This document shows positions 22,010 through 24,747 of a DNA stretch of 64,000 nucleotides, one piece after another. Source of the DNA: a plasmid; assembly GCF_058153355.1 (NCBI RefSeq), contig NZ_JBLWLY010000002.1; one strand, written 5' to 3'. Both the position numbers and the translations under genes were made by a program. The notes below the pieces were generated by a model. It was given only the letters and a program-made list of their open reading frames with translations. It was not told the origin of the DNA and did no database searches. Position 1 is the stretch's first letter, and the number at the start of each line of letters is the position of its first letter.

Positions 22010-22228
22010 ATGAAGCAGCGCATTACAGTCACCGTCGACAGTGACAGCTATCAGTTGCTCAAGGCATATGATGTCAATATCTCCGGTCTGGTAAGCACCA
22101 CCATGCAGAATGAAGCCCGTCGTCTGCGTGCCGAACGCTGGAAAGCAGAAAATCAGGAAGGGATGGCTGAGGTCGCCCGGTTTATTGAAATGAACGGCTC
22201 TTTTGCCGACGAGAACAGGGACTGGTGA
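22010..22228 (+). CDS. ccdA: CcdA antitoxin
   Basis: 72 aa, matches recalled F CcdA. Confidence 0.9.
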
Positions 22229-22229
22229 A

Positions 22230-22535
22230 ATGCAGTTTAAGGTTTACACCTATAAAAGAGAGAGCCGTTATCGTCTGTTTGTGGATGTACAGAGTGACAT
22301 TATTGACACGCCCGGGCGACGGATGGTGATCCCCCTAGCCAGCGCCCGCCTGCTGTCAGATAAAGTCTCCCGTGAGCTTTACCCGGTGGTGCATGTCGGG
22401 GATGAAAGCTGGCGCATGATGACCACCGATATGGCCAGTGTGCCGGTCTCCGTCATTGGGGAAGAAGTGGCCGATCTCAGCCACCGCGAAAATGACATCA
22501 AAAACGCCATTAACCTGATGTTCTGGGGAATATAA
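22230..22535 (+). CDS. ccdB: CcdB toxin (gyrase poison)
   Basis: 101 aa, matches recalled F CcdB. Confidence 0.9.
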
Positions 22536-23240
22536 ATGTCAGGCTCCGTTATACACAGCCAGTCTGCAGTCATGGTACCGGCAGTGTATTCTGCCGGACA
22601 GCCTGCATCGCTGCCTGTTGCCATTGATTATCCGGCTGCGCTGGCACTCCGCCAGATGTCGATGGTTCATGATGAACTGCCAAAATACCTGCTCGCCCCT
22701 GAAGTGAGTGCCCTGCTCCATTACGTCCCGGATCTGCGCCGCAAGATGCTGCTGGCCACTCTGAAGCAGCGGACAGAAAAAGCTGCCAGGACGGCAGGAA
22801 GAATGCCCGCCGGTCAGCAGACTCACCGGCTGGTTCCGCTCTCCGACTCCTGGTACGTCAGCCAGCTGCAGACGATGGTGGCCACACTGAAAATCCCCAT
22901 GGAACGGCGTAATAAACGAACAGGCAAGAAAGCGCGGCTCTGGGAAGTGACGGACAGAACGGTCAGGACCTGGATTGGGGAGGCGGTTGCCGCCGCTGCC
23001 GCTGATGGTGTGACGTTCTCTGTCCCGGTCACGCCACATACGTTCCGCCATTCCTATGCGATGCACATGCTGTATGCCGGTATACCGCTGAAGGTCCTGC
23101 AGAGCCTGATGGGGCATAAGTCCATCAGCTCAACGGAGGTCTACACGAAGGTGTTTGCACTGGATGTGGCTGCACGGCACCGGGTGCAGTTTGCGATGCC
23201 TGAAGTGGATGCGGTAGCCATGCTGAAAGGGAATATTTAA
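22536..23240 (+). CDS. resD: ResD-like tyrosine site-specific recombinase
   Basis: 234 aa; position after ccdB as in F; C-terminal HxxR..Y region present. Confidence 0.7.
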   Translation: MSGSVIHSQSAVMVPAVYSAGQPASLPVAIDYPAALALRQMSMVHDELPKYLLAPEVSALLHYVPDLRRKMLLATLKQRTEKAARTAGRMPAGQQTHRLVPLSDSWYVSQLQTMVATLKIPMERRNKRTGKKARLWEVTDRTVRTWIGEAVAAAAADGVTFSVPVTPHTFRHSYAMHMLYAGIPLKVLQSLMGHKSISSTEVYTKVFALDVAARHRVQFAMPEVDAVAMLKGNI

Positions 23241-23607
23241 GTAATTAGGAGAATGATGCTGGCGAACGTCCAGCTCGCCGATGAGGTCTGCTGAATTCAA
23301 ATTGCTTAGTGAAATGTCTGGATATGCCGCATTTTACCCAGTGCGGCGTACTTTTGGTTACGGATATGATCGAGCCAGCAGTGCTCGCCGCAGCCGAGCG
23401 ACAGGGCGAAGCCCCGAGTGAGCGAGGAAGCACCAGGGAACAGTACTTATATATTCCGCTTACGCTCTATGCCTGAAAAATCTCCTTACCTAGGGGTTAT
23501 CCACTTATCCACCTGGTTATTTTTATAAGATCTTTTTTTATAGTTGTTAGATCTTTATTTTTAGAATGCCCGCAGGCCTTTATCCATGCGGGTTCCAGAG
23601 GGGGAAG

Positions 23608-23702
23608 TGTGACAAACCGCCCTTTCAGTGTGACAAATCACCCTCAAATAGCAGTCCTTTCTGTGACAAATCACCCTTAACCCTGTGACAAATTGCCCTC
23701 AG
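23608..23702. repeat. RepFIA ori2 iterons (four direct repeats TGTGACAAAT..CCCT) with DnaA boxes upstream
   Basis: Repeats seen directly; ttatccacttatccacc at about 23497; operator inverted repeat at repE promoter. Confidence 0.7.
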
Positions 23703-23797
23703 ATGGCGTTGCTTTTCACAAAGTTATCCATCCCTGTTGACTCTGTTTTATGAAGTGTGACAATCTGAAAATCTGTCACACTTCACATGGGCCTGTC

Positions 23798-24553
23798 ATG
23801 GCGGAAATAGCGGTTATAAACCATAAAAAACGTAAAAATAGCCCGCGGATTGTCCAGTCAAATGAGCTGACTGAGGCGGCATATAGTCTTTCTAGGGATC
23901 AAAAGCGTATGCTGTATCTGTTCGTTGACCAGATCAGAAAATCCGACGGTTCCCTGCAAGAACCTGATGGCATCTGCGAAATTCACGTTGCTAAATACGC
24001 TGAAACATTCGGGCTAACCTCCGCTGAAGCCAGTAAGGATATTCGACAGGCTTTAAAAGGTTTTGCGGGTAAGGAAGTGGTTTTCTATCGCCCTGAAGAG
24101 GATGCCGGTGATGAAAAAGGGTATGAATCCTTTCCTTGGTTTATCAAACGTGCGCACAGTCCATCCAGAGGGATTTACAGTGTACATATAAACCCATATC
24201 CCATTCCCTTTTTCATCGGGCTACAAAACCGGTTTACGCAGTTCCGGCTCAGTGAAACAAAAGAGATTACCAATCCGTATGCCATGCGTTTATACGAATC
24301 CCTGTGTCAGTACCGTAAACCTGATGGCTCAGGTGTCGTGTCCCTGAAAATCGACTGGATCATGGAGCGCTACCAGCTACCTCAAAGTTACCAACGTATG
24401 CCGGATTTTCGCCGGCGTTTCCTGCAGGCAAGTGTTGATGAGATCAATAGCCGGACACCAATGCGCCTCTCTTACATCGAGAAAAAGAAAGGCCGCCAGA
24501 CGACTCATATCGTATTTTCCTTCCGTGATATTACCTCGATGACAACAGAATAG
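23798..24553 (+). CDS. repE: RepFIA replication initiator RepE
   Basis: 251 aa from [11 protein letters not shown]; matches recalled F RepE. Confidence 0.9.
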
Positions 24554-24555
24554 TT

Positions 24556-24747
24556 TGAGGGTTATCTGTCACAGATTTTAGGGTGGTTCGTCACATTTGA
24601 TCCGGCAGGTTGAGGGTGATTTGTCACAGTTTTGCTGTTCCATCCCTGGCAGCCTGCGCTTATTCATAGTTTTTTGGCTGTAACCGGTAGTGAAACCAAG
24701 TTTGAGGGCAATTTGTCACAATACATGAGGGCAGATTGTCACACTTG
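24556..24747. repeat. RepFIA incC iteron array (five repeats)
   Basis: Five copies of GAGGGnnAtcTGTCACA-like repeat downstream of repE. Confidence 0.65.

Follow-up and report, generated by a model that had tools for sequence, protein, structure and literature searches.

A RepFIA-type block with a small par locus in place of sopABC, and IncFII-family control genes, on one plasmid sequence

The stretch of plasmid DNA analysed in our study (the window) is one contiguous sequence of 64,000 nucleotides (nt), ending at base 64000, and the region in question is a block at 22010-24747 which resembles the replication and maintenance region of plasmid F. The block runs from the start codon of ccdA to the last iteron of incC (24746). 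Genes were identified from a six-frame list of open reading frames (ORFs) along with Pfam and NCBIfam scans, and F (NC_002483) was taken as the reference for alignment and for all identities to F. The following features, with protein lengths in amino acids (aa), were found in the block:

22010-22228 (+): ccdA, antitoxin of 72 aa; Pfam CcdA at 6.9e-27; 96.3% nt identity to F
22230-22535 (+): ccdB, gyrase toxin of 101 aa; Pfam CcdB at 2.3e-32; 96.7% nt identity to F
22536-23240 (+): resD, the F 'D' tyrosine recombinase, 234 aa; Phage_integrase match in the C-terminal half only; 92.8% nt identity to F
23497-23512 (+): two tandem DnaA boxes TTATCCACTTATCCAC of ori2, starting at 23497 and 23505; identical to F in the alignment
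23513-23560: AT-rich stretch of ori2, directly after the DnaA boxes
23608-23701 (+): four direct 19-bp iterons of ori2 (incB), starting at 23608, 23629, 23662 and 23684
23737-23785 (+): repE promoter-like site and, overlapping it, the inverted-repeat operator TGAAGTGTGACA / TGTCACACTTCA; conserved with F
23798-24553 (+): repE, initiator of 251 aa; NCBIfam RepE equivalog NF010305, Pfam Rep3_N and Rep3_C
24556-24746 (+): incC, five iterons, inverted with respect to those of ori2; from motif search and F alignment

The preliminary description of this DNA had placed ccdAB, resD, ori2, repE and incC here in the order of F, and the alignment bears this out, as the block at 22010-24746 is colinear with F. 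The iteron motif TGTGACAANNNNCCCT, allowing at most one mismatch, has 9 matches in the 64 kb against 0.32 expected, and all 9 fall in two clusters, four direct copies at 23608-23699 (ori2) and five inverted copies at 24558-24743 (incC). With these counts the F-like block is clearly beyond chance. The start-to-start spacing of the ori2 iterons (21, 33 and 22) equals that of F. Moreover, the repE operator is a perfect 12-bp inverted repeat (23751-23762 / 23774-23785), and the promoter scan gave the hexamers TTGACT-16-GACAAT at repE. The elements that define a RepFIA replicon are present, namely ori2 with iterons, DnaA boxes and AT-rich stretch, the incC iterons, and an operator lying over the repE promoter; nt identity to F is 87% in ori2 and 77.6% in incC. 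A defect of repE or of the iterons had been named beforehand as a possible flaw and was examined: repE is full length, and the four plus five iterons are all intact, as are the operator and the two DnaA boxes. The cis-sites of the block are 97-99% identical to those of relatives with a normal RepE. Upstream of ccdA, the rfsF/oriV1 region of F was represented only by weak colinear patches (69-83% identity) in comparison with the pifC-ccdA intergenic region, which we take to hold oriV1/rfsF in F. The C-terminus of CcdB reads ...MFWGI, as in the F protein.

Similarity to F ends at about 24950, from where F continues into sopA whereas the window continues into unrelated DNA. A replacement of sopAB by a small ParA/partner locus from 25400 had been proposed, and this holds, because tblastn with F SopA and SopB found no orthologue in the window. 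In F, SopA is a type Ia ParA with 388 aa, and SopB belongs to the ParB/Spo0J family. Across the whole window SopA gave only a hit of 29% identity to an unrelated ParA at 8699-9157, and SopB gave nothing. The replacing locus contains:

25103-25386 (both orientations): array of TTGCTGCAAGAT-type motifs upstream of parA, candidate operator/centromere; from motif search
25400-26032 (+): small (type Ib-like) ParA ATPase of 210 aa; KGGVGKST Walker A; Pfam CbiA and MipZ
26032-26406 (+): gene of a 124-aa partner, its start overlapping the parA stop
26410-26495 (no strand assigned): second TTGCTGCAAGAT motif cluster, downstream of the 124-aa gene

The best solved relative of the 210-aa ParA is ParF of TP228 (PDB 4dzz), with E=1e-6 over residues 4-188. 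The protein reaches 96.3 bits on the NCBIfam ParA_partition model (cut-off 180) and 22.8 bits on the SopA model (cut-off 725). For the 124-aa partner there was no sequence match in Pfam, NCBIfam or PDB and no detectable similarity to ParG. It was found on 460 PLSDB plasmids, from Escherichia, Klebsiella, Xanthomonas, Pseudomonas and Rickettsia; in most of 40 sampled rows the annotation puts a ParA gene at the match or next to it, and relatives of the protein are called 'stability/partitioning determinant' by some sources. In an alignment of 36 homologues the N-terminal peptide and the C-terminal segment are conserved and the linker is variable, and the AlphaFold2 (AF2) model ends in an extended stretch followed by helices 90-103 and 107-122, with a predicted local distance difference test score (pLDDT) of about 80 over residues 90-122. 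Because of the conserved N-terminal peptide, the variable linker and the C-terminal strand-helix-helix, the protein is a probable ribbon-helix-helix (RHH) centromere-binding protein. The top Foldseek matches are mostly RHH proteins (CopG, Arc, ParG, CdbA), none of them significant, the best having E = 1.8. The RHH partners of type Ib systems such as TP228 ParF/ParG and pB171 par2 measure 76-91 aa, and the partner here has 124 aa.

The TTGCTGCAAGAT search gave 19 matches against 7.7 expected in the window; seven fall within 25118-25377 and three within 26421-26495. The first copy pair of the downstream cluster forms a terminator-like hairpin, and a promoter-like site was located by the promoter scan at 25333-25360, upstream of parA. 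In par2 of pB171 the parC1 and parC2 repeat arrays presumably stand on both sides of the operon, like the motif arrays here. The reading of the locus as a type Ib system with an RHH centromere binder appears reasonably supported as to the class of its ATPase, while the fold of the partner and its DNA target are putative. For this ParA/124-aa pair, no experimental study was found.

Close to base 64000, CopB and the tap leader of a RepFIIA replicon had been recognised, and both were found, with the CopA RNA gene between them:

63443-63700 (+): copB (repA2), repressor of 85 aa; Pfam RepB-RCR_reg at 9e-34; NCBIfam NF010256 at 138.6 bits (cut-off 87)
63827-63916 (-): CopA antisense RNA gene; Rfam RF00042 at 95.7 bits (gathering score 60), model positions 1-92 of 92
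63934-64000 (+): tap leader peptide, first 22 of 24 codons, ending at the window edge; annotated as tap in R100 and NZ_CP026754

The label RepFIIA stands in so far as an FII-type control region is present, but 'IncFII family' is the better term, as CopB, in its C-terminal two-thirds, and CopA, in its loops, are unlike their R100 counterparts. Because of these differences, and of only 79% identity to the control region of the Shigella flexneri plasmid pCP301, the window carries an IncFII-family control region of another allele than R100. Between hok/sok and copB lies a group II intron (60840-63146) with Rfam matches to D1-D4 and to domain V/VI and with an ORF for a reverse transcriptase/maturase at 61323-63065; sok itself is at 60506-60661, and R100 has no insertion there.

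Two replicon types are present within a single contiguous sequence, and the preliminary view of a multi-replicon mosaic agrees with this; its observations are confirmed and its interpretation is supported by the sequence comparisons. The identity and order of the genes, the integrity of the cis-elements and the point where likeness to F breaks off are established here. The window also holds type III secretion cargo of the invasion plasmid (pINV) found in Shigella as well as in enteroinvasive Escherichia coli (EIEC), that is an ospG kinase, an ipaH-type NEL E3 ligase and virF, and because these genes are present it is taken as part of a pINV-like virulence plasmid. The region very probably belongs, as a segment bounded by insertion sequences (IS) on a pINV-like plasmid with an IncFII-family replicon, to a widespread lineage of F-type RepFIA modules without sop.

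The mini-F mechanism is established knowledge and forms the basis of the steps proposed for the FIA module. RepE monomers would bind the four ori2 iterons and, with DnaA at its two boxes, open the AT-rich stretch, whereas RepE dimers on the inverted-repeat operator would repress repE. The five incC iterons may titrate or handcuff RepE, by which the copy number would be kept at 1-2, and CcdAB would kill segregants that have lost the plasmid. Segregation would proceed through the small Walker-type ParA and its 124-aa, probably RHH, partner instead of SopABC, the candidate partner-binding motif being arrayed on either side of the par operon. In the second replicon, the FII RepA would be controlled by CopB at the level of transcription, by the CopA antisense RNA and by translational coupling through tap.

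The initiator needs closer consideration. RepE scores 524.9 bits on NF010305 (cut-off 342) over residues 1-251 of 251, matches the PDB structures 2z9o and 1rep with E of about 1e-160 and is identical to F RepE at 237 of its 251 residues. There are 14 substitutions; thirteen are all at variable columns, and the remaining one is L135P. Among 56 homologues of full length, with identities down to 32%, column 135 holds leucine in 52, isoleucine in one, valine in three and proline in none. The exact RepE occurs in just two other contigs, whereas its 90% cluster has 1206 members. These two contigs come from independent NCBI draft assemblies and contain the same module at 99.96-99.99% identity, with the IS in parM and the ResD of 234 aa, and because of this recurrence L135P can be regarded as real and lineage-specific. 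The AF2 model places residue 135 just before helix 136-141, in the segment linking the two winged-helix domains; it places the residue only and cannot judge the effect of L135P. Chaperone-independent copy-up mutations of RepE reportedly lie at residues 93-135, and we assume residue 135 to be the edge of this interval. In crystal structures L142-Q148 of RepE, which start 7 residues after position 135, contact single-stranded origin DNA (PMC10602881).

These data could mean that the FIA block is in decay and no longer able to replicate, a relic whose RepE is inactivated by L135P, with the plasmid replicating from FII alone; the block would be kept because the plasmid still profits from ccdAB addiction and from the small par locus, the iterons being cost-free. 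The aliphatic residue in all 56 homologues and the rarity of the exact RepE agree with such a relic, as do the lost box I segment of ResD, the truncation of parM by an IS and the IS elements bounding the module (see below). On the other hand, the repE frame is full length, the other 13 differences from F fall at variable columns, all cis-sites are intact and close to those of relatives with normal RepE, and the residue lies in the model just before a helix, where proline is often tolerated. A dead initiator gene would also be expected to gather more lesions. A relic is possible, though we consider it doubtful. RepE is judged somewhat more likely than not to be functional, and the FIA core probably still replicates or at least exerts incompatibility, as far as can be read from sequence.

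L135P may instead be an adaptive regulatory variant which biases RepE to monomers like the laboratory mutant RepE54 (R118P), with weaker autorepression and chaperone dependence and a higher initiation frequency. R118P, likewise a proline in the dimerisation region of the first winged-helix domain (WH1), leads to loss of dimerisation and to a copy-up phenotype (summarised in PMC5395669). The L135P variant is fixed in three assemblies, and the place of residue 135 at the edge of the copy-up interval named above would agree with this reading. However, the strict natural conservation of the site argues for a structural and not a tunable role, and on a plasmid of 64 kb or more a runaway FIA replicon would be costly, so that such an adaptation is unlikely. 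Slightly more unlikely again is the wider proposal that a pINV-type lineage keeps a complete second (FIA) replicon in which L135P is the natural counterpart of the monomerising copy-up RepE mutants. If true, a natural copy-up RepE would mean that the copy number of the virulence plasmid and its chaperone or temperature dependence are set differently.

The rest of the module also departs from its relatives. Two in-frame deletions, one of 96 bp and one of 6 bp, distinguish resD from its counterparts in F and in the close relative p600468_158 and leave 234 instead of 268 aa. The 96-bp deletion takes out TLWNTGARINEAL... and the 32 aa lost, TLWNTGARINEALALTRGDFSLAPPYPFVQLA, include the box I segment (TGARINEAL), so that ResD lacks a complete catalytic domain with the box I arginine (TGxRxxEL), a catalytic residue of tyrosine recombinases. 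Its coverage of the Pfam Phage_integrase profile is 107-168, against 2-168 in F and p600468. With the box I segment lost and the Pfam match shrunk, the ResD resolvase is probably inactive. The exact 234-aa ResD was seen in just two further contigs. The flanks of the module are as follows:

20866-21552 (-): gene of a kfrA-like DNA-binding protein, the left flank of the module; Pfam KfrA_N at 2.9e-21
26623-27183 (+): 5' fragment of parM (stbA); Pfam StbA_N at 4.5e-69; blastn against p600468 parM-parR
27145-28352 (-): ORFs of an IS3-family element, the right border of the module

The kfrA-like flank is also present on many IncF plasmids. The homology of parM with its intact counterpart in p600468_158 breaks off at 27183, where the IS3-family element begins, and neither the rest of parM nor parR is present in the window. 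Repeats of the type CTCAAATTGAGTA at 26510-26630, upstream of the truncated parM, are probably parC iterons of the lost ParR. On the left, IS21 homology ends at 20739 and the module starts at about 20740, so that the FIA module measures about 6.4 kb (20740-27183) between its two IS borders. The module thus bears signs of erosion, with a probably dead resolvase, a truncated parM and an initiator that is odd yet intact. Another par pair, a 296-aa ParA and a 343-aa ParB with KorB domain, lies at 7600-10566, and parD/parE-like toxin-antitoxin ORFs and TTCGCATGCGAAAT inverted repeats stand just upstream of the 296-aa parA. With this third pair, the window holds three par systems of different types.

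The IS borders also bear on whether the two replicons truly share one molecule, as the co-occurrence of FIA and FII could be an assembly artefact in which a segment of a second plasmid was joined through shared IS copies. IS21 adjoins the segment on its left and the IS3-family element on its right, the window has another IS21 copy at 48399-50368, and in both drafts the module is a separate contig of 7.4-8.0 kb ending in those IS elements. However, short-read contigs normally break at IS copies and are uninformative on linkage, the window is one contiguous sequence, and FIA with FII on one plasmid is common, as in NZ_CP026754. Of all the alternatives this one is the least probable, and very improbable in itself. 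Two copies of the 390-aa IS21 istA gene, in the same orientation and 29 kb apart, were observed at 19466-20638 and 49196-50368; one of them borders the FIA module, and the pair is a potential substrate for deletion or for assembly mis-joins.

Several points weigh against the reading of the region as an F-type RepFIA module on an IncFII-family plasmid. The nt identity of repE to F is 88.4% over 756 bp, and replicon typing of RepFIA needs about 95% nt identity to the F reference allele; the comparison is an approximation, since 88.4% refers to the whole gene and not to the exact typing segment, and on sequence grounds the window repE is a diverged FIA-family allele. A proline at a site that is otherwise always aliphatic might abolish or alter the activity of RepE. 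Further, the box I loss in resD, the truncation of parM and L135P together suggest relaxed selection on the module. Because IS elements bound it, this assembly is the sole basis for joining it physically to the FII backbone, and the IS21 of its flank recurs in the window. The FII repA1 and oriR lie beyond base 64000; only copB-copA-tap is in view.

With regard to the surrounding plasmid, the virulence cargo is located at 4521-5111 (-), 13672-15402 (-) and 17108-17917 (+), and the virF region is 99.9% identical to Shigella sonnei pSS_046. A remnant of tra genes at 50416-58437 comprises the 3' end of traD, cut by IS21 (48399-50368), together with traX, finO and a traI split into two ORFs (51887-53824 and 53821-56475); this stretch is colinear with S. 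flexneri pCP301 at 96% identity. Two antisense RNAs were matched in Rfam, AS-pc02 at 58681-58864 (-) with 178.8 bits and AS-traI at 54651-54727 (-) with 105.9 bits. A pap-like chaperone-usher fimbrial operon at 37699-44929 encodes several fimbrial subunits together with an usher of 842 aa, a chaperone similar to PapD and a protein similar to PapJ; it and a separate ORF with an MrpH_C adhesin domain (32414-33481, -) are flanked by IS110-family transposase genes.

It was also considered whether ccdAB and stbAB of the S. flexneri pINV are remnants of this FIA module, and the idea is not supported because in pCP301 stbAB lies 18 kb away and ccdAB, at 91% identity, is further from the window than that of F. 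The pCP301 ccdAB homology to the window ends 10 bp into resD. Likewise, the 'IncFIA' label of PLSDB/MOB-suite was dropped as evidence of a RepFIA replicon, because R100, pCP301 and pSS_046 carry it and the parts examined of them contain the FII copB-tap-repA alone. No description of a pINV combined with RepFIA/IncFIA was found in the literature, in a limited library by which novelty is not proven. A plasmid identical to this one was not found in 5,426 complete E. coli genomes and PLSDB, where the best FIA match had 97.9% identity.

Beyond annotation the importance of these findings is small: two replicon types occur with several redundant maintenance systems, some already broken, as is typical of large IncF virulence plasmids. 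They can be used in replicon typing and in predicting incompatibility. Of wider interest are the RepE L135P variant and the retention of the whole FIA module on a pINV-like backbone, where the S. flexneri pINV has ccdAB alone.

In comparison with mini-F, the window has the same order from ccdA to incC, two DnaA boxes, four iterons spaced 21/33/22, the operator and five canonical incC iterons. It differs in lacking the 60-bp spacer of incC with a degenerate sixth iteron, in a shorter resD-ori2 spacer of unrelated sequence, in a resD short by 34 codons, in RepE L135P and in the absence of sopA, sopB and sopC. For partition it appears to resemble TP228 ParF/ParG instead, having a small Walker ATPase whose gene is overlapped by the partner gene, and it is like type Ib systems in a partner with a predicted disordered N-terminal part and a predicted strand-helix-helix at the C-terminus.

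The S. flexneri plasmid pCP301 also has ospG, ipaH and ccdAB, and its segment from the tra remnant to a yihA-like gene is colinear with 51033-60449 of the window at 96-98% identity. Whereas the window has a complete FIA module, in pCP301 ccdAB stands alone and is directly followed by ipaH9.8, the parts examined (130-221.6 kb) show no resD, repE, iterons or small par locus, and stbAB is elsewhere, adjoining leading-region genes. R100 shares the order copB-copA (antisense)-tap, a matching copB promoter region and 5' end, a tap that is nearly identical over the codons present and, upstream, the order traI-traX-finO-nuclease-hha-DUF2726; the window differs from it in CopB and the CopA loop regions, as described, and in having hok/sok and the group II intron upstream of copB.

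The closest likeness is to a lineage already sampled. In PLSDB, 147 plasmids from E. coli and Klebsiella cover at least 80% of the 1-kb incC-parA junction, and p600468_158 (NZ_CP025850), NZ_CP051728 and NZ_CP026754 are among the best full-length relatives, with 97-98% identity from ccdA to parA. Their annotation reads ccdA-ccdB-integrase-repE-ParA-hypothetical-parM-'partitioning/stability protein'. In the p600468_158/NZ_CP026754 lineage the block from ccdA to parM is 97-99.5% identical to the window, whereas its ResD has 268 aa, its RepE has L135, its parM is complete and followed by parR and then leading-region genes, and its backbone is conjugative and F-like in place of the pINV-like one seen here. 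NZ_CP026754 carries the same module and an IncFII copB-tap-repA on one plasmid, because of which FIA and FII with this par locus can be counted as already present among complete plasmids. The layout of the module is not new but a common arrangement, and the region, judged from these comparisons, is an ordinary variant of the RepFIA maintenance module, already well sampled, on an IncF plasmid with more than one replicon.

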